From the NCBI RefSeq assembly GCF_947496775.1, contig NZ_CANMDU010000004.1, forward strand, positions 218,426 to 282,425: a stretch of DNA of 64,000 nucleotides, read 5' to 3'. How positions within the stretch are numbered: the first letter of the stretch is position 1; each line of letters starts with the position of its first letter. Made by a program: the position numbers and the translations under genes. Below are positions 1-32,551 of this stretch, piece after piece. The notes under the pieces are model-generated. The model did not search any database. It had not been told where the DNA came from and saw only the letters and a program-made list of their open reading frames with translations. The stretch is from an uncultured Maribacter sp. GTDB taxonomy: Bacteria > Bacteroidota > Bacteroidia > Flavobacteriales > Flavobacteriaceae.

Positions 1-57
1 CACCACATTCATCCAATACCTTTTACCCTAACTCTTCTTTACATTACCTTTGCAGAA

Positions 58-131
58 CCATAGCATAAGTAGGTTAAGTTCATGGTAAGATTTGGGGAAA
101 AGACGGGACAATGTTCCGTCTTTTATTTTTT
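58..131 (+). ncRNA. Candidate small RNA, copy 1 of a tandem array: conserved 39-nt core CCATAGCATAAGTAGGTTAAGTTCATGGTAAGATTTGGG plus hairpin/T-run terminator
   Basis: The core is followed by the stem GACGGGA/TTCCGTC and a T-run at 121-131. A TACCTTTG -7-like box at 45-52 lies just upstream. The same unit repeats at 271-344. Confidence 0.4.
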
Positions 132-270
132 ATGCATTCTACAAAATAGAACTGCCGAATAACCAGACATTATTACCACCTAAAGTTCCAAAACAGCACT
201 TTAACTAAAGTTACACCACATTCATCCAATACCTTTTACCCTAACTCTTCTTTACATTACCTTTGCAGAA

Positions 271-344
271 CCATAGCATAAGTAGGTTAAGTTCATGGTA
301 AGATTTGGGGAAAAGACGGGACAATGTTCCGTCTTTTATTTTTT
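271..344 (+). ncRNA. Candidate small RNA, copy 2, near-identical to copy 1
   Basis: A direct repeat of a 213-bp unit (214-426 versus 1-213) with only a few substitutions in the spacer. Confidence 0.4.
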
Positions 345-483
345 ATGCATTCTACAAAATAGAACTGCCAAATAACCAAACATAATTACCACCTAAAGTT
401 CCAAAACAACACTTTAACTAAAGTTACACTACATTCGTCCAATACCTTTTACACTAACTCTTCTTTACATTACTTTTGGAGGA

Positions 484-556
484 CCATAGCATAAGTAGGT
501 TAAGTTCATGGTAAGATTTGGGGAAAAAAGGCAGGGTTACACTCTGCCTTTTTTAT
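484..556 (+). ncRNA. Candidate small RNA, copy 3: same core with a different terminator hairpin
   Basis: The core is conserved. The hairpin is GGCAGGG-TTACA-CTCTGCC plus a T-run. A -7 box TACTTTTG lies at 471-478. Confidence 0.4.
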
Positions 557-689
557 TGCTGACACTCAAGCATTTAACAAGATTTACCCTTCATTTTTAG
601 GATATTTAGAGAAAATAATTTTAAGGTTACTGTATAAAATTTCGCAAAATTCCTTTTTTATTTCCCACAATACCAGTAATTTAGTTTCG

Positions 690-760
690 CCATAGCATAA
701 GTAGGTTAAGTTTATGGTAAGATTTGGGACGAAAAGGGTGGAGACTTCTCCGCCCTTTTC
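690..760 (+). ncRNA. Candidate small RNA, copy 4 (truncated unit): core with C->T change and a third hairpin variant
   Basis: The core is CCATAGCATAAGTAGGTTAAGTTTATGGTAAGATTTGGG. The hairpin is GGGTGGAG-ACTT-CTCCGCCC followed by TTTT. Confidence 0.35.
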
Positions 761-780
761 TATGCCATAAAAACAAAAAA

Positions 781-810
781 ACCACCTTGTTAAAACAAGG
801 TGGTTTTTTA
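781..810. terminator. Bidirectional intrinsic terminator (serves sodA on the minus strand)
   Basis: A perfect 9-bp stem ACCACCTTG/CAAGGTGGT is flanked by an A-run upstream and a T-run downstream. Confidence 0.7.
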
Positions 811-836
811 ATTTAGTACTGAGTAGTACTTATAAA

Positions 837-1445
837 TTATTTATTTGCAGCGTATAACTCCGAAACTTTATCCCAATTGATAATATTAAAAAAAGCGTTA
901 ACGTAATCTGGTCTTCTGTTTTGGTAGTTTAAATAATATGCATGTTCCCAAACATCTAAGCCCAAAATAGGGAAACCACTACAACCAGACTCTGGCATAA
1001 GTGGATTATCTTGGTTAGGAGTAGAGCAAACTTCTACCTTACCACCTTTATGAACACATAGCCAAGCCCATCCAGAACCAAATCTTGTTCCTGCAGCCGT
1101 ACTAAATGCGTTTTTAAATTCTTCAAAAGAACCACAAGCAGCATTTATTGCATCTGCTAATTCTCCAGAAGGTTCTCCTCCTCCATTAGGAGATAAGATT
1201 TCCCAAAATAAGGAATGATTATAAAAACCGCCTCCATTATTTCTTACTGCCCCATTAGACATATCTAAATTAGTAAGAATATCTTCTATAGATTTTCCTT
1301 CTAATTCTGAGCCTCCAATAGCGCCATTTAATTTAGTTGTATATCCGTTATGGTGCTTCGTATGGTGTATTTCCATAGTTCTTGCATCAATATGTGGTTC
1401 TAACGCATCGTATGCGTATGGTAATTTTGGTAATTCAAAAGCCAT
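837..1445 (-). CDS. sodA: Fe/Mn superoxide dismutase
   Basis: A 202-aa product with the canonical N-terminus (LPxLPY, HHxKHH) and the C-terminal DVWEHAYY motif. Confidence 0.95.
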
Positions 1446-1562
1446 AATTATGTGTATTTATATATTAGTTTTGCATATCAAATTTACAGTATTTAACCAT
1501 CACATTCAATTATTTCTTTGTTAAGAACATTGCAATATTTCGTATTTTGCAATTAAAAGAGA

Positions 1563-4500
1563 TTGCAAGAAGTTCCATATAAAATATACAGTGCCTCTGC
1601 CGGCTCAGGAAAAACATATGTTCTTTCTAAAGAATATATTAAAACTGTTTTATCTTCTACACATAGTTTTAAACAAATACTTGCTATAACATTTACCAAT
1701 AAAGCGGTAAATGAAATGAAACATAGAATTATTACTAGCCTGTTTGAGTTCAGTAAAACTACTTCGACAGCAGATGCTTCTTCCATGTTCTTAGACATCA
1801 TGAAAGAACTTCATTTAGATGCTGTTACTTTACAAAAAAAAAGTAAACGAACTTTAAAAGAAATTTTACATAATTATGCTTTTTTTGACATTTCTACCAT
1901 AGATAAGTTTACACATAGACTAATACGAACTTTTGCTAAAGATTTAAAATTACCTCAAAATTTTGAAGTCGTTTTAGATACCAATTTATTGTTAGATGAG
2001 GCTGTTTCCGCATTAATAAATAAAGCCGGCTCTAATGATAAACTAACACAGGTATTATTAGATTTTGCCCTTGAAAAGATAGATGATGATAAAAGTTGGG
2101 ACATTGCCATTGATCTAACTAAAATTGGCAAGCTTCTATTTAACGAAAATCATGTTCCGCATTTAAAACAAATAAGCGATAAAGGTTTAGATGCCTTCTT
2201 GGATTTAAAAAAGAAACTAAAAAAAGATATAAATACTATAGAACAAAATGCTAATAATTTAGCCTCCGAAACCCTAGAGTTAATTAGCAAAAGTGGCTTT
2301 GAGTATACTGATTTTCCCAGAGAAACACTCCCAAACCATTTTAAAAAAATAATTGAAGGTATTTATGAGCCAAGCAAAATTTACAATAACAAACTAGAAC
2401 AAAATTTAATCGATAATAAAATTGTAAAAGCTACAGTTTCATTATCTACAGAAGAACTTTCTTCGCAATTATTACAATACTATTCTACCATAAAAAACCT
2501 TTTGTATACTCGAGCATTCTTAAAAAATGCTTATCAAAATTTGGTTCCTCTGACAGTTTTAAACGCAATTCAACATGAAGTTAAACATATTCAAAAAGAG
2601 AAAGACCAATTATCCATATCAGAATTTAATACTATTATATCTAATGAAATTAAAAACCAACCTGCTCCTTTTATCTATGAAAGATTAGGAGAAAAATACA
2701 GGCATTATTTTATTGATGAGTTTCAGGATACGTCAGAAATGCAATGGAATAATCTTACTCCTTTAATTGGTAACGCCTTAGAAAGTGAAAACCTTCTAGG
2801 GGAAACGGGTTCTTTGTTTTTAGTAGGAGATGTTAAACAATCTATCTATAGATGGAGAGGCGGTAAGGCGGAACAATTTTTAGATTTAACAAATAAGAAT
2901 GTAAATCCATTTGTACTGCCACCTTCCATAAATAATTTACCCGATAATTATCGTAGTTATGAGGAGGTGATTAATTTTAACAATGAATTTTTCACATGTA
3001 CAAGTTCATTATTAAGTAACGACACCTATAAAAATCTATATATACAAGGAAATAACCAAGGAACTAATACTAAAAAAGGAGGTGTAGTATCTCTTTCTTT
3101 TTTGGAGAAAGATACTAGTACAGATGAAGACTATTGTATAGAAGTTCTACAAACAATTAAACAAGTAAAATCTAAAGATTATTCTTATAAAGATATTTGC
3201 ATTATTACTCGTAAAAGAAAACACGGCGTGGCTGTTGCAAATTTTTTAATGCAGAATAACATTCCTATTATCTCTTCTGAAAGTTTATTACTTAAAAATA
3301 GCCCTAAAGTAAAATTTTTAATTTGTTTATTAAGATACAATCTATTACCAAATGATTTAGAAAACAACTACCAAATACTAAATTATCTATCAAAAGATAA
3401 AACGGAAAAACACCAGTTTATTTCTGACAATATAAAACAGTTAGATACTTTATTACATACTAATTATTACTATAATCGAAAATTAACAGAACAATTATCT
3501 GTTTTTGATACTTTAGAGATTGCCATTAAACTGTTTGCTTTAGCAGAATCTTCAAATGCCTATATTACCTATTTCTTGGATATAGCATTAGAAATAGAGC
3601 AAAATAGTGGTGCCGACATACAAACGTTTTTAAACTATTGGGACAAAAAAGAGGAGACTCTAAGTATCAGCGCTCCAGATAGTATGAATGCTGTACAAAT
3701 AATGACAGTACATAAAGCAAAAGGACTAGAGTTTAAAATAGTAATATTTCCTTTTGCAAATTCTAGTTTTAAAGAGCAAATAGAACCCAAATTATGGATG
3801 CCTATAAATTCAGAAATATCGCCAAACTTTAATGAACTTCTAATTAGCAAAAAGCAAGAAGTGGTACAATATGGTCCCGCTGCAGAATTTTTATACAATG
3901 AAGAAGAATACAAATTAGAGCTAGACGCCTTTAATGTTATTTATGTGGCATTAACGAGAGCCGTAAAAGGACTATATGTAATTACTAAAAAAGACCTAAC
4001 TCAAAAAGGAGACCATAAAGAAGCAACATATTCGGGAATGTTTATTGCTTTTTTAAAATATAAAAATCTTTGGAACATAGAACAATCTATATACACTTTT
4101 GGCCTTTTAGAAAGTAATCCCGAAAAAACAATTAGCAATAAAAACCAAACGGATATTGCCTATGGATATACCGAAAAAAATAGGCCCGGATTTCAGATAA
4201 TAACCAAATCTGGCATGCTTTGGAATACCGACAGAGAACAAGCAATAAATAAAGGAAATATTTTACATAACATATTAAGTAATATTTATACGGAGAAGGA
4301 TACGGATTATGCCTTATCCAAAGCTTTATCCTCTGGAGAGATTAGCCCGATAGATGTTCCTATTTTAAAGGATAACATAAATGACATCATAAATCATCCA
4401 GATTTATGTATGTACTATAAGGACACCATTACCATATATAACGAAAAAGATATTATTACACCTAACGGAGAAATTCTCCGCCCAGACAGAATAGTAATTA

Positions 4501-4664
4501 TAAATAACAAGGCATCCATTATAGATTATAAAACCGGAAAAAAAGACTCCCGATATAACCAACAGCTATATTCGTATGCCGATGCCCTAGAAAGCATGGG
4601 GTATTCTATATATACTAAAATAATTGTATATATAAATGACAAAATAACCTGTGAATTTATTTAG
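1563..4664 (+). CDS. UvrD/AddA-like ATP-dependent helicase with C-terminal PD-(D/E)XK nuclease domain
   Basis: A 1033-aa product with a Walker A (ASAGSGKT) near the N-terminus and a DEFQDT Walker B. It has a UvrD-like architecture and a C-terminal IIDYKTGKK nuclease motif. The ORF track gives a TTG start. Confidence 0.8.
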   Translation: MQEVPYKIYSASAGSGKTYVLSKEYIKTVLSSTHSFKQILAITFTNKAVNEMKHRIITSLFEFSKTTSTADASSMFLDIMKELHLDAVTLQKKSKRTLKEILHNYAFFDISTIDKFTHRLIRTFAKDLKLPQNFEVVLDTNLLLDEAVSALINKAGSNDKLTQVLLDFALEKIDDDKSWDIAIDLTKIGKLLFNENHVPHLKQISDKGLDAFLDLKKKLKKDINTIEQNANNLASETLELISKSGFEYTDFPRETLPNHFKKIIEGIYEPSKIYNNKLEQNLIDNKIVKATVSLSTEELSSQLLQYYSTIKNLLYTRAFLKNAYQNLVPLTVLNAIQHEVKHIQKEKDQLSISEFNTIISNEIKNQPAPFIYERLGEKYRHYFIDEFQDTSEMQWNNLTPLIGNALESENLLGETGSLFLVGDVKQSIYRWRGGKAEQFLDLTNKNVNPFVLPPSINNLPDNYRSYEEVINFNNEFFTCTSSLLSNDTYKNLYIQGNNQGTNTKKGGVVSLSFLEKDTSTDEDYCIEVLQTIKQVKSKDYSYKDICIITRKRKHGVAVANFLMQNNIPIISSESLLLKNSPKVKFLICLLRYNLLPNDLENNYQILNYLSKDKTEKHQFISDNIKQLDTLLHTNYYYNRKLTEQLSVFDTLEIAIKLFALAESSNAYITYFLDIALEIEQNSGADIQTFLNYWDKKEETLSISAPDSMNAVQIMTVHKAKGLEFKIVIFPFANSSFKEQIEPKLWMPINSEISPNFNELLISKKQEVVQYGPAAEFLYNEEEYKLELDAFNVIYVALTRAVKGLYVITKKDLTQKGDHKEATYSGMFIAFLKYKNLWNIEQSIYTFGLLESNPEKTISNKNQTDIAYGYTEKNRPGFQIITKSGMLWNTDREQAINKGNILHNILSNIYTEKDTDYALSKALSSGEISPIDVPILKDNINDIINHPDLCMYYKDTITIYNEKDIITPNGEILRPDRIVIINNKASIIDYKTGKKDSRYNQQLYSYADALESMGYSIYTKIIVYINDKITCEFI

Positions 4665-4853: not shown

Positions 4854-6215
4854 ATGAAACATCTTAGCAAATTATTAGTTGTTGCTCTACTTGTTGTAGG
4901 TTTTAACAACATACAAGCTCAAGACGAAAATAACCCATGGCAGGTTAGTTTTGGAGCTAATGCGATTGACGTATATCCTACAGGAGATTTCGTAGCAGAC
5001 GATCTTAGTACTAGTTCTTTTGGAAACGAATTATTCAACGCAGCAGATCACTGGAACATTCTACCTTCAATCTCTTATATTGGAGTTTCTAAAAATGTAG
5101 GTGGTGGATTTTCTGTTGGTGCTAGAGGTTCTTTAAATAAAATTAGCAAATGGGGAGATGATAGTAGAGATGATTTATCTCACTATGGTATAGATGGTAC
5201 AATTAAGTACAACTTTATACAAAATAAATGTATAGACCCTTTCGCTGAAATAGGTGGTGGTTATTCTTGGATTGATGAAATTGGTGCTGGTACTGCTAAT
5301 GCTGGTCTAGGTGTTAATTTCTGGTTTACAGAAAACATTGGTCTTACTGTACAATCTTCTTATAAGCATTCTTTTGAGGATTACTTAGTATCTCACTGGC
5401 AACATATGGCTGGTATAGCTATCAAATTTGGTGGTACAGATACAGATGGTGATGGTGTTTATGACAAAGATGATGCTTGTCCGGAAGTTGCTGGTTTAGA
5501 AGCTTTCAATGGTTGCCCAGATGCTGATGGTGATGGTATTGAAGATAGCAAAGATGCTTGTCCTAATGCTGCTGGTACTAAAGAAATGAACGGATGTCCT
5601 GATGGTGACGGTGATGGTGTTGCTGATAAAGATGATGCTTGTCCAGAAGTTGCTGGTTTAGCTGCTTTAGCTGGTTGTCCTGATGCTGATGGTGATGGTG
5701 TTGCTGATAAAGATGATGCTTGTGCTAACGAAGCTGGTCCTGCTGAAAACAAAGGTTGTCCTTGGGCTGATAAAGATGGTGATAGCGTTTTAGATAAAGA
5801 TGATGCTTGTCCTGCTATCGCTGGTACTGTTGCTAACAATGGTTGTCCTGAAGTAACTGAAGAAGTTCAAAAGAAATTAAACGATTACGCAAGAACTATC
5901 TTATTTGATACTGGTAAATCTTCTATCAAAGCAGAATCTACTGCTGTAATGGTTGATATTATTACAATCTTAGCAGAGTACCCTAACGCTAAATTTACAG
6001 TTGAAGGTCATACGGATAGTGTAGGTAGTGCTAAATTAAACCAAAAATTATCTGATTCTAGAGCTAATTCAGTTCGTGATTTCTTAATTGATAAAGGAAT
6101 TGCTTCTGATAGATTAACTGCTATTGGATACGGAGAAGATAAGCCTATCGCTACTAACAATACTAGAGCTGGTAGAAAATCTAACAGAAGAGTTGAAATC
6201 AACTTAGTAAAATAA
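4854..6215 (+). CDS. OmpA-family outer-membrane protein with thrombospondin type-3 (TSP3) repeats
   Basis: A signal peptide is followed by about 8 tandem DxDxDGxxDxxDxCP calcium-binding repeats (5440-5850). The C-terminal OmpA domain carries [11 protein letters not shown]...NRRVEI. Confidence 0.9.
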
Positions 6216-30377: not shown

Positions 30378-30450
30378 AAGAGTATAGTTCAATTGGATAG
30401 AACGCTGGGCTACGAACCCAGAAATGCGAGTTCGAGTCTTGCTACTTCTG
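30378..30450 (+). tRNA. tRNA-Arg(ACG), hand-folded; A2.C71 mismatch and G.U in T-stem
   Basis: The D-arm is TAGTTCAATTGGATAGAAC, the anticodon stem CTGGG/CCCAG has loop CTACGAA, and the T-loop is GTTCGAGTC. A hairpin AACTACGCA/TGCGTAGTT lies downstream at 30471-30495. Confidence 0.55.
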
Positions 30451-30525
30451 CTAAAAACAAAAGAAATCTGAACTACGCATAATAATTGCGTAGTTATGTT
30501 TCAGTTTTGTGAAGTAATTGGAAAA

Positions 30526-31005: not shown

Positions 31006-31048
31006 AAACCTGTAGCTCAGTTGGTAGAGCACTACACTTTTAATGTAG
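31006..31048 (+). pseudogene. tRNA-Lys(UUU) 5' portion (acceptor AAACCTG, D-arm TAGCTCAGTTGGTAGAGC, anticodon stem-loop CTACA-CTTTTAA-TGTAG) without canonical T-arm/3' acceptor
   Basis: The downstream sequence gives the hairpin ATGGA-CTGAAAA-TCCAT but no matching acceptor strand. Its 5' acceptor nearly complements the 3' acceptor of the preceding element. Confidence 0.45.
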
Positions 31049-31450
31049 GTTATGGACTGAAAATCCATTTTCAACAAGAAGGTCACTTGTAAAAAGACCA
31101 CCGGATGGTCACTCCGTATAATTGACAAAAACAGTAGTTGTACATCGGTCATTATTTCCTAAAGAGGAGTAAAGACAATCATGAAGCTACTTTGAAATGG
31201 TGATTTTTTTGATGTGAAAGGCAAATCCTTTTTTAGTCATCCTTCCTTCTGGAAAACTGATAACAATTTTATTAGTAAGACAATCGGATGCATGCTATAA
31301 AACGAATTGTAACGAGTATCAAAAACCAGTATTTCCGTATCAGAAAGATGATATGCCCCTGCTGTTTTTTTAAATAGAACAAATAGTAATACATGATAAT
31401 AGTTTAACCCGTTCGTCCGTCACTAGACTGGCGGACACAAATTTTAAGTA

Positions 31451-32551
31451 ATGAAAAGAGTAAGAATTAATGCAGGAAAAGTAGGTTTGGTCTTCAAAAG
31501 AGGCGATTACCAAAAAGTAATTACCCAAGGTACACATTGGGTAGGTTTTAGAAATGTGGTTATGATTTATGACCTTACCAAAGCCTTTGTTGCTCCTATA
31601 GCATTAGAAATCTTGCTACAGGACCAAGATTTGGAAGCAATGTTGCATATCATCGAAGTTAAAGATGCTGAACTGGCTTTGGTTTCTGAAAACGGAAACT
31701 TGAAGCAGGTCTTGACAGCTGGTAAGTACGCTTTCTGGAAAGGTTTGATCAACTATGAGTTCGTTATAGCAGACTTGAGTAAAATCTATATCACTGAGGC
31801 TATTACCAAAGCGATGTTGAGCCATACACAATTACTTCCTTACGTTCGTGTTTTGGAAGTTGCCGCACATGAAAAAGCTGTTCTTTTGGTTGATGATGTT
31901 TATATCAAGACTCTCGAAAGTGGTGCTTACCATTTCTGGAAAAATGATATCTCCATCAAAATCGCCAGAGCGGATATGCGTCAATTGCAATTGGAGATTT
32001 CTGGTCAAGAATTGTTGACAAAAGACAAGGCTGCTATTCGTATCAACTTCTATACGCAGTATAAAGTTATAGATATCGAAAAGGCCTTGCTAGGAAGCAA
32101 AGACTACGAGAAGCAATTGTACATTGCTATGCAGTTGGTATTGCGTGCCTATATCGGCACCTATACGCTAGATGAACTTCTAGAGCGAAAAGAAAGCATC
32201 GCGGAAGCGGTATTTGCAGATATCAAAACGGATACTACACAATTAGGTGTTGAAGTTCTGAGCTGCGGTATCCGTGATGTAATCTTAACTGGTGAAATGA
32301 AAGACATAATGAACCAGGTTTTGGTGGCTCAGAAGAGAGCTCAAGCGAATATCATTACCCGGCGTGAAGAAACGGCGTCGACCCGAAGCTTGCTGAACAC
32401 CGCAAAACTAATGGAAGACAACGAAATGCTCTTCAAGCTGAAGGAAATGGAATACGTTGAAAAGATTGCCGAAAAAATCGGTGAGATTACCGTCTCCGGT
32501 AACGGAGGTATGGTAAAACAATTGAAGGAGATTTTCTCCGTCAATAAGTAG
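31451..32551 (+). CDS. SPFH/band-7 domain protein
   Basis: A 366-aa product. The C-terminal half matches the SPFH pattern (LTKDKAAIRINFYTQYKV...LDELLERKESIAEAV...GVEVLSCGIRDVILTGEMKDIMNQVLVAQKRAQANII). Confidence 0.65.
   Translation: MKRVRINAGKVGLVFKRGDYQKVITQGTHWVGFRNVVMIYDLTKAFVAPIALEILLQDQDLEAMLHIIEVKDAELALVSENGNLKQVLTAGKYAFWKGLINYEFVIADLSKIYITEAITKAMLSHTQLLPYVRVLEVAAHEKAVLLVDDVYIKTLESGAYHFWKNDISIKIARADMRQLQLEISGQELLTKDKAAIRINFYTQYKVIDIEKALLGSKDYEKQLYIAMQLVLRAYIGTYTLDELLERKESIAEAVFADIKTDTTQLGVEVLSCGIRDVILTGEMKDIMNQVLVAQKRAQANIITRREETASTRSLLNTAKLMEDNEMLFKLKEMEYVEKIAEKIGEITVSGNGGMVKQLKEIFSVNK

Follow-up and report, generated by a model that had tools for sequence, protein, structure and literature searches.

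What is encoded by a short sequence repeated in tandem, each repeat bearing what look like its own promoter and terminator? The question is raised by the first 761 nucleotides (nt) of a 64,000-nt stretch from an uncultured Maribacter sp. (RefSeq assembly GCF_947496775.1, contig NZ_CANMDU010000004.1, positions 218,426 to 282,425 of the forward strand; the whole stretch is hereafter the window), where a first-pass annotation had proposed four small RNA (sRNA)-like units. The analysis presented here indicates that window positions 1-761 very probably hold four tandem genes of the Rfp13 sRNA family, each a transcription unit of its own, whose products would act in trans as siblings. Judged by sequence, the array belongs to the published but functionally uncharacterised Rfp13/Rfp15 family of Flavobacterium psychrophilum and is not a new RNA class; the family is absent from Rfam.

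The repeated core, CCATAGCATAAGTAGGTTAAGTT[C/T]ATGGTAAGATTTGGG, is 39 nt long and occurs exactly four times, always on the + strand (positions 58-96, 271-309, 484-522 and 690-728), against zero copies expected from shuffled controls (n = 100), in line with the four tandem units first described. The cores are spaced 213, 213 and 206 nt from start to start, and the unit at 1-213 is 98% identical to that at 214-426. A covariance model that includes the published Flavobacterium sequences recovers only these four cores from the 64-kb window, at 62-63 bits, with the runner-up at 13.8 bits. A G+C-rich hairpin followed by a T-run lies 3' of every core, so each unit does have its own terminator, as annotated; the stems are GACGGGAC/GTTCCGTC (two copies), GGCAGGGT/ACTCTGCC and GGGTGGAGA/TCTCCGCCC. 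To call these stems completely different was slightly overstated, all being GG-rich, but the idea of a preserved architecture holds for the family at large: 164 distinct sequences make up the 5' stem arms of the 430 distinct 3' tails, and 349 of these tails still have a T-run behind a hairpin of 6 bp or more. The units are as follows, with B and C denoting copy types that are described below.

57-131, + strand: sRNA copy 1, middle (B) type; core at 58-96, then a linker, the terminator hairpin (98-124) and a T-run up to 131
270-344, + strand: sRNA copy 2, B type; core 271-309, terminator 311-337; unit 98% identical to that of copy 1
483-556, + strand: sRNA copy 3, B type; core at 484-522; a different stem, GGCAGGGT/ACTCTGCC, in the terminator hairpin (524-554)
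689-761, + strand: sRNA copy 4, last (C) type; core 690-728, T variant at 713, linker GGGACG
about 732-759, + strand: terminator of copy 4, with a short T-run (TTTTCT)

All four units share the same three-part predicted fold (z-scores of -3.3 to -3.9), in which (A)CCAU/AUGG(U) closes a weak 5' hairpin, an unpaired AAGAUUUGGGG with an A-rich linker comes next and the terminator is last. With the start sites of the window copies taken from the mapped start of Rfp13, the RNA would begin at the A/G immediately 5' of CCAUAGC and be about 73-75 nt long. Its weak 5' hairpin (CCAU/AUGG closure) would present the invariant GUAGGUUAAG, and would be followed by a single-stranded (A)GAUUUGGGG plus the A-rich linker and, lastly, by a Rho-independent terminator.

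Rfp13 (THC0290_N_0129) of F. psychrophilum is a 73-nt sRNA labelled 'induced under iron depletion' (Guerin et al. 2021, ISME Commun, Table S8; PMC9723704), with the sequence CCATTACATAAGTAGGTTAAGTTATGGTAGATTTGGGGCAAAAAAGGCGGAAC...TTTTTT (PMC9723704). Aligned with the window core, its own core (CCAUUACAUAAGUAGGUUAAGUUAUGGUAGAUUUGGGG) agrees at 35 of 39 positions and shows two 1-nt indels, and the window core is present exactly in the blastn homologs listed in Table S9 for Zobellia galactanivorans and Cellulophaga algicola (PMC9723704). The window RNAs and Rfp13 have in common the 5' hairpin, the GAUUUGGGG and A-rich linker, the terminator, the 73-nt length class and the promoter type, and all four window units carry a predicted -7 box at -13 to -6 together with a predicted terminator. 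The window RNAs differ from Rfp13 in the stem (AGC, against UAC in Rfp13), in a bulged C/U and in having one more linker A.

The start site of Rfp13, supported by 7237 reads and preceded by a SigA-type promoter, lies at 208135, the first C of CCAU (PMC9723704). Its log2 fold changes, as read from the table, are +5.68 in the transition phase, +7.09 in stationary phase and +2.38 with dipyridyl, and it is very abundant, at a log2 of about 17 on arrays (PMC9723704). Stationary phase and iron depletion have thus been shown to bring the ortholog to very high abundance (PMC9723704). That Rfp13 is a regulated 73-nt transcript with a mapped start (PMC9723704) agrees with the first-pass view of the units as expressed sRNAs of about 70 nt and not a decaying repeat.

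The genomic setting is also the same. Rfp13 (208062-208134, - strand) faces sodA (207374-207979, + strand), lies on the opposite strand 22 nt past the end of the sodA 3' segment, and has a UvrD-family helicase gene beyond sodA (PMC9723704). The window matches this geometry, with copy 4 ending at ~761, a convergent superoxide dismutase (SOD) gene and, on its far side, a UvrD helicase gene; the difference is one of number, F. psychrophilum having one copy at sodA and the window at least four in tandem. The features that follow the array are listed here.

771-814, no assigned strand: hairpin AAAAAACCACCTTGTT..AACAAGGTGGTTTTTT, a bidirectional terminator separating the array from the convergent sod gene
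837-1445, - strand: Fe/Mn superoxide dismutase gene (sod), convergent with the array and its conserved downstream neighbour
1563-4664, + strand: UvrD helicase gene, on the far side of sod

The hairpin at 771-814, between copy 4 and the sod stop codon, is strong and symmetric (A-run/T-run) and could terminate transcription in both directions. Because the T-run of copy 4 is short (TTTTCT), a longer read-through isoform reaching ~815 and overlapping the 3' end of sod is possible.

A second F. psychrophilum sRNA, Rfp15 (THC0290_N_0156), has the 5' core CCAUUACA.AUGUAGGUUAAGUUUAU in common with the window and is located directly 3' of purF. It differs in its diverged linker (UUGAAUAUUUUUGAG versus GGUA(A)GAUUUGGGG), in its weaker expression and in lying away from sodA. 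Searches of window positions 1-3000 against Rfam 15 at E <= 10 returned only weak, terminator-driven matches far below the gathering scores, and at gathering thresholds the whole window yielded tRNAs only; with no Rfam family matching the core, Flavo-1 and the known sRNAs included, its exclusion by eye from tRNA, transfer-messenger RNA, 6S RNA and RNase P stands. A search of the literature on the core sequence, on Rfp13 and on iron-related sRNAs of Flavobacteriaceae found only Guerin et al. 2021 (PMC9723704) and nothing later. As far as we found, that paper (PMC9723704) does not contain the tandem amplification to between one and six copies, the family-wide purF-[sRNA]n-sodA locus, the old position-specific types or the TTCAWC repeats without a Fur box, all of which are described below.

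How the family is distributed was examined by pattern scans of metagenomes (with AGCATAAGTAGGTTAAGTTNATGG) and of genomes (with TAGGTTANGTNNNTGGTAN{2,3}TTTGGG), each of which gave at least 120 loci; the comparative counts rest on the 240 loci (L numbers below) listed from the two scans together. Among the genome matches listed, all those named to family or genus are Flavobacteriaceae, the rest being metagenome-assembled genomes of unclassified Bacteroidota or Flavobacteriales. The genera include Maribacter, Zobellia, Pricia, Flagellimonas/Muricauda, Flavobacterium, Winogradskyella, Aquimarina, Kordia, Gillisia, Salegentibacter, Leeuwenhoekiella, Mesonia and Aequorivita. Across the 240 loci, conservation starts at the predicted start site, and upstream of it the promoter elements alone are conserved, a pattern that supports independent sRNA genes, as had been proposed.

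Within the RNA, conservation is uneven. Among ~450 units there are 54 distinct core variants, and the variation is restricted to the 5' side of the stem (AGC/AAC/UAC/AAU...), the block GUAGGUUAAGUUYAUGGUA(A)GAUUUGGGG being essentially fixed. The 5' hairpin is weak (-1 to -10 kcal/mol), and covariation gives it modest support: 87% of alignment cells are paired, and five pairs show double changes, a number matched by 3 of 500 shuffles. Examples are the closing pair, which changes from C-G to U-A, and a change from A-U to G-C in a variant subfamily. These pair counts come from a model-based alignment (A3); a MAFFT alignment (A1) misplaced the 5' gaps. The variant subfamily, in which the stem GGC...GUC replaces AGC...GUU (CCAUAAGGCGUAAGUAGGUUAGGUCUAUGG), forms the first copy of two-copy arrays and is always 5' of a standard copy (L013, L031, L049, L054, L089, L106, L111, L149 and L200); it is the clearest compensatory change backing the 5' hairpin.

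Arrays in which both flanks are present hold one (71 arrays), two (48), three (21), four (19), five (1) or six (1) copies by the strict pattern, in every case on the same strand; further, diverged copies in Flavobacterium are picked up by the covariance model. In 147 of the 179 clusters with enough flank, the last copy has a convergent homolog of the window SOD gene no more than 1.5 kb away (median gap 93 nt), and in 154 of 173 arrays the first copy directly follows a purF-like amidotransferase gene on its own strand (median gap 108 nt). Because of these two frequencies, the ancestral arrangement is purF -> [sRNA]n -> <- sodA. The locus is split in F. psychrophilum, with Rfp15 beside purF and Rfp13 beside sodA ~43 kb away (PMC9723704). 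Each flanking gene of the split locus has kept one sRNA copy and Rfp15, being directly 3' of purF, therefore corresponds to the 'first copy', stranded by the split.

The same arrangement bears on what precedes the window. In Maribacter-like arrays a distinct first-copy type stands ahead of the types present in the window, and purF is directly upstream as a rule, so the annotated suspicion that the array is cut by the window edge is well founded. Since the window begins inside the array, purF and probably one further copy should be located immediately upstream of position 1; the copy is predicted to be of the A type (GGGGCAAAAAAGGTGGAG...), with purF ahead of it. The complete array would then probably have five or more copies. 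Five copies make up the array of Maribacter vaceletii (L190), the SOD of which shares 91% identity with the window SOD.

In the group of Maribacter, Zobellia and Muricauda, the copies of an array are of three position-specific types. The first (A) has the 3' part ...UUUGGGGCAAAAAAGGUGGAG; the middle (B) has a TTTGGAGRA start region and ...GGGGAAAA; and the last (C) has AAGUUUAUGG and ...UUUGGGACGAAAAGGG, with a nearly invariant promoter of 55 nt. Window copies 1-3 are of the middle type and copy 4 is of the last type. The core variant of copy 4 (63.2 bits) is found at 23 genome loci in at least 10 named genera and, in every case checked, in the copy nearest to sodA. It follows that only the middle copies are recent duplicates and that the types are old; the recent duplication first suggested for the array thus applies to copies 1 and 2 (98% identity) and more loosely to copy 3, but not to copy 4, an old paralog.

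Each unit would be transcribed from a sigma-A type promoter with a -7 box of the form TAnnTT(T/A)G and, in copies 1-3, a -33-like CCTTTT. The TAnnTTTG boxes that had been annotated for copies 1-3 are indeed present, at -13 to -6 of each; copy 4 has the near-consensus TAATTTAG, the form usual for first and last copies throughout the family. The promoter features of the window are listed below.

8-13, + strand: hexamer TTCATC of unit 1, at about -50; its partner at about -71 precedes window position 1
19-24, + strand: -33-like CCTTTT of unit 1
45-52, + strand: -7 box TACCTTTG of unit 1 (sequence match)
200-226, + strand: upstream repeat pair of unit 2: TTTAAC (200-205) and, 21 nt further on, TTCATC (221-226)
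258-265, + strand: -7 box TACCTTTG of unit 2 (sequence match)
413-439, + strand: upstream repeat pair of unit 3: TTTAAC (413-418) and TTCGTC (434-439)
471-478, + strand: -7 box TACTTTTG of unit 3 (sequence match)
630-684, + strand: promoter region of unit 4 (C type), with ATTTC-type repeats AAATTTCGCAAAATTCCTTTTTTATTTCCCAC and the -7 box TAATTTAG at 677-684

The hexamers TTCATC, TTCAAC and TTCGTC are strongly enriched 5' of the -33 region, above all in two bins 21 nt apart, at -72 and -51; of 423 distinct upstream regions, 140 contain TTCATC, compared with 12.6 in shuffles. Because these direct hexamers sit 5' of the -33 region, a layout that differs from that of a repressor operator, their position suggests that the TTCAWC hexamers at about -72/-51 of B-type copies are activator sites, a prediction from sequence. 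The inverted form GATGAA is seen at -96/-66 of some first copies. In M. vaceletii, for example (L190, 1896-1935, - strand), a perfect 13-nt inverted repeat, TTATCGATGAAAT-N14-ATTTCATCGATAA, includes the TTCATC hexamer and lies between the purF stop codon and the promoter of the first sRNA; it may be a binding site for a regulator. In the same 423 upstream regions, the best matches to the Riemerella Fur box (ATTTAGAATTATTCTAAAT) and to the classical Fur box are at shuffle level and have no preferred position.

The promoter of the last copy is of another kind. Across genera, ~55 nt of the C-type promoter are almost invariant (window 630-690; L012, L025, L045, L086, L115, L129, L138, L190 and others), with three ATTTC(T) repeats 11-12 nt apart and, in the consensus, an inverted repeat CAATAC-N10-GTATTG across the -7 box and start site. 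Such a promoter suggests that regulation of the last copy is distinct from that of the middle copies.

As to what the RNAs do, they would be sibling riboregulators working in trans, with mRNAs from other loci as their targets. Pairing would run through the invariant apical loop (GUAGG...), the unpaired GAUUUGGGG linker, or both; tandem amplification would raise dosage, and the divergent A, B and C promoters would diversify the inputs, as for Qrr, PrrF1/2 and LhrC1-5. Several observations weigh against this proposal. In the 64-kb window outside the array, sequences complementary to the loop (CTTAACCTAC) and to the linker (CCCCAAATCTTA) are no more frequent than chance, and duplexes with the 52 gene starts of the window stay within background (the best at -24.9 kcal/mol, compared with a 1% tail at -28.3 kcal/mol), plain duplexfold being a poor discriminator in this setting. 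Target prediction, which the first-pass annotation had put forward with the core as seed, returned nothing above chance in the 64-kb window. The CopraRNA list for Rfp13 is heterogeneous, with no obvious iron-sparing theme (PMC9723704), and the expression data come from the F. psychrophilum ortholog and not from the organism of the window. Furthermore, ~30 contiguous nt are nearly invariant, one side of the stem included, which is beyond the need of a simple seed; the length of this block could reflect protein recognition instead of, or besides, base pairing.

Target prediction covered sodA, purF and the genes of the 64-kb window, and the two conserved neighbours are not predicted targets. Recurrent complementary runs to the sodA and purF mRNAs are no commoner than with the reversed sRNA. 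Relative to shuffled sRNAs, the mean z-score is -0.65 for sodA translation-start regions (4% of them below -2) and -0.57 for purF.

Four other explanations have to be set beside that of trans-acting siblings. PrrF1 and PrrF2 are in tandem, and RyhB represses sodB; an analog of RyhB, PrrF, FsrA or IsrR, repressed by Fur and shutting down iron proteins, the adjacent SOD included, in iron scarcity, is therefore a natural thought for RNAs that adjoin an Fe/Mn SOD gene in 147 of 179 clusters and whose ortholog is labelled iron-depletion-induced (dipyridyl log2 fold change +2.38; PMC9723704). It is nevertheless unlikely: a Fur box is absent, Riemerella and classical matches being at shuffle level in the 423 upstream regions, and the direct hexamers 5' of the -33 region fit activator sites and not a repressor operator. 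The stationary-phase induction (+7.09) far exceeds the effect of iron, and sodA mRNA does not fall in dipyridyl (+0.32) in F. psychrophilum (PMC9723704); nor does pairing at the sodA start region (mean z -0.65) or the count of complementary runs, equal to the reversed-sequence control, point to sodA. The invariant ~30-nt block may alternatively be bound by a conserved protein that the tandem copies titrate in the manner of CsrB or RsmY. Such a sponge or decoy would explain why target prediction gave none, why there are as few as 54 core variants among ~450 units when the SODs are only ~70-90% identical to the window SOD, and why the loop, the 3' stem side and the linker are fixed with variation on the 5' stem side alone, and it would suit so abundant an ortholog (log2 about 17 on arrays; PMC9723704). 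We consider it quite unlikely, as each RNA has one copy of any candidate motif, whereas CsrB-type sponges are multi-site, and no gene for a partner protein is linked to the locus. An invariant block is also compatible with base pairing, the sibling Qrr sRNAs being base-pairing RNAs with an invariant block of ~32 nt.

The very stable position between purF and convergent sodA could instead indicate a cis element of this locus, which would either form a stack of bidirectional terminators or insulators or let antisense transcription run into the 3' end of sodA. The symmetric sRNA terminator (A-run, hairpin, T-run) of single-copy genomes, the 22-nt distance from the sodA segment in F. psychrophilum, and the weak T-run of copy 4 followed by a second, bidirectional terminator at 771-814 would all fit. 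This explanation is improbable, however, since it accounts neither for an invariant 39-nt 5' core with a dedicated, regulated promoter in each unit nor for the huge, condition-dependent abundance of a short transcript; moreover, the 32 clusters (of 179) without an adjacent sodA match keep the same core, and Rfp15, away from sodA, retains the 5' core despite its diverged linker. Hardly credible, finally, is a non-functional or selfish repeat (a decaying duplication, or an element like a repetitive extragenic palindrome (REP) or a miniature inverted-repeat transposable element (MITE)), or else a small-protein gene read from the conserved ATG (MVRFG...). The tandem, near-identical 213-bp units recall the former, but the element has a single orientation and a single conserved locus, no other copy in the 64-kb window, and conservation across dozens of genera. 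The ATG inside the core and the short open reading frames at 508-600 and 724-816 recall the latter, but the frame is broken immediately behind that ATG by the GGTA(A)GATTT indel, and later 'codons' would fall in the divergent terminator stems. A small open reading frame was accordingly ruled out by this 1-nt frame-shifting indel directly after the only conserved ATG. One locus, one orientation and spacers with promoter elements and terminators ruled out a MITE, a REP element, an insertion-sequence fragment and a CRISPR array.

Comparison with characterised systems helps to place the trans-acting sibling sRNAs favoured here. PrrF1/PrrF2 of Pseudomonas aeruginosa and RyhB of enterobacteria resemble them in a link to superoxide dismutase and, as far as the ortholog Rfp13 goes, in induction by iron scarcity, and the PrrF RNAs also in being tandem siblings; the window RNAs differ in having no sequence similarity, no Rfam match, no Fur box and no predicted pairing with sod, and Rfp13 in being induced most at stationary phase. 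Qrr1-5 of Vibrio, LhrC1-5 of Listeria and the csRNAs of Streptococcus are multi-copy sibling sRNAs driven by one activator. They are alike in comprising several near-identical short sRNAs with their own promoters and terminators, in a long invariant block, in activator-like upstream repeats and in species-dependent copy number; they differ in their unrelated sequence and phylum, and the Rfp13 family keeps its copies strictly in tandem at a single locus, where they fall into position-specific subtypes. FopS, of Bacteroides thetaiotaomicron, is a paralogous multi-copy sRNA family in the same phylum, but its copies are dispersed beside polysaccharide-utilisation loci and not in tandem; a search of Rfam, the sole comparison made, showed no sequence relationship. 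To our knowledge, Bacteroidota are without Hfq, ProQ and CsrA. It is possible, and we put it forward tentatively, that the array is the Flavobacteriaceae counterpart of Qrr, PrrF and LhrC, or else that the invariant ~30-nt block is the site of a global RNA-binding protein. As such a counterpart, an activator on TTCAWC (-72/-51) would switch the sRNAs on in starvation, stationary phase and iron limitation, and the old A, B and C types would integrate different inputs.

Two further features of the window lie outside the array. A partial tRNA-like sequence at 31013-31068 (+ strand; Rfam tRNA, 30.9 bits, model positions 8-63) has a D-arm and an anticodon stem-loop (UUU), lacks a proper T-arm and acceptor end, and received no ARAGORN call. 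It lies ~560 nt after tRNA-Arg(ACG) (30378-30451) and before a Band-7/SPFH gene (31451-32551), and may be a tRNA-Lys remnant. The product of the gene at 4854-6215 (+ strand) is an outer-membrane protein of the OmpA family that carries a series of thrombospondin type 3 (calcium-binding) repeats; the protein has homologs in only 36 of the 240 related loci.

RNA regulation in Bacteroidota outside Bacteroides is almost unexplored, and the Flavobacteriaceae are major players in marine carbon turnover and fish disease. The finding re-identifies a published sRNA as an RNA that is conserved across this family at a fixed chromosomal address, in one to six copies depending on the species, and that, being absent from Rfam, goes unannotated in thousands of genomes. 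Its locus architecture, paralog types and promoter repeats are handles toward the regulator and the regulon, as well as material for an Rfam family, and constitute a lead for Bacteroidota RNA biology and for Rfam curation.

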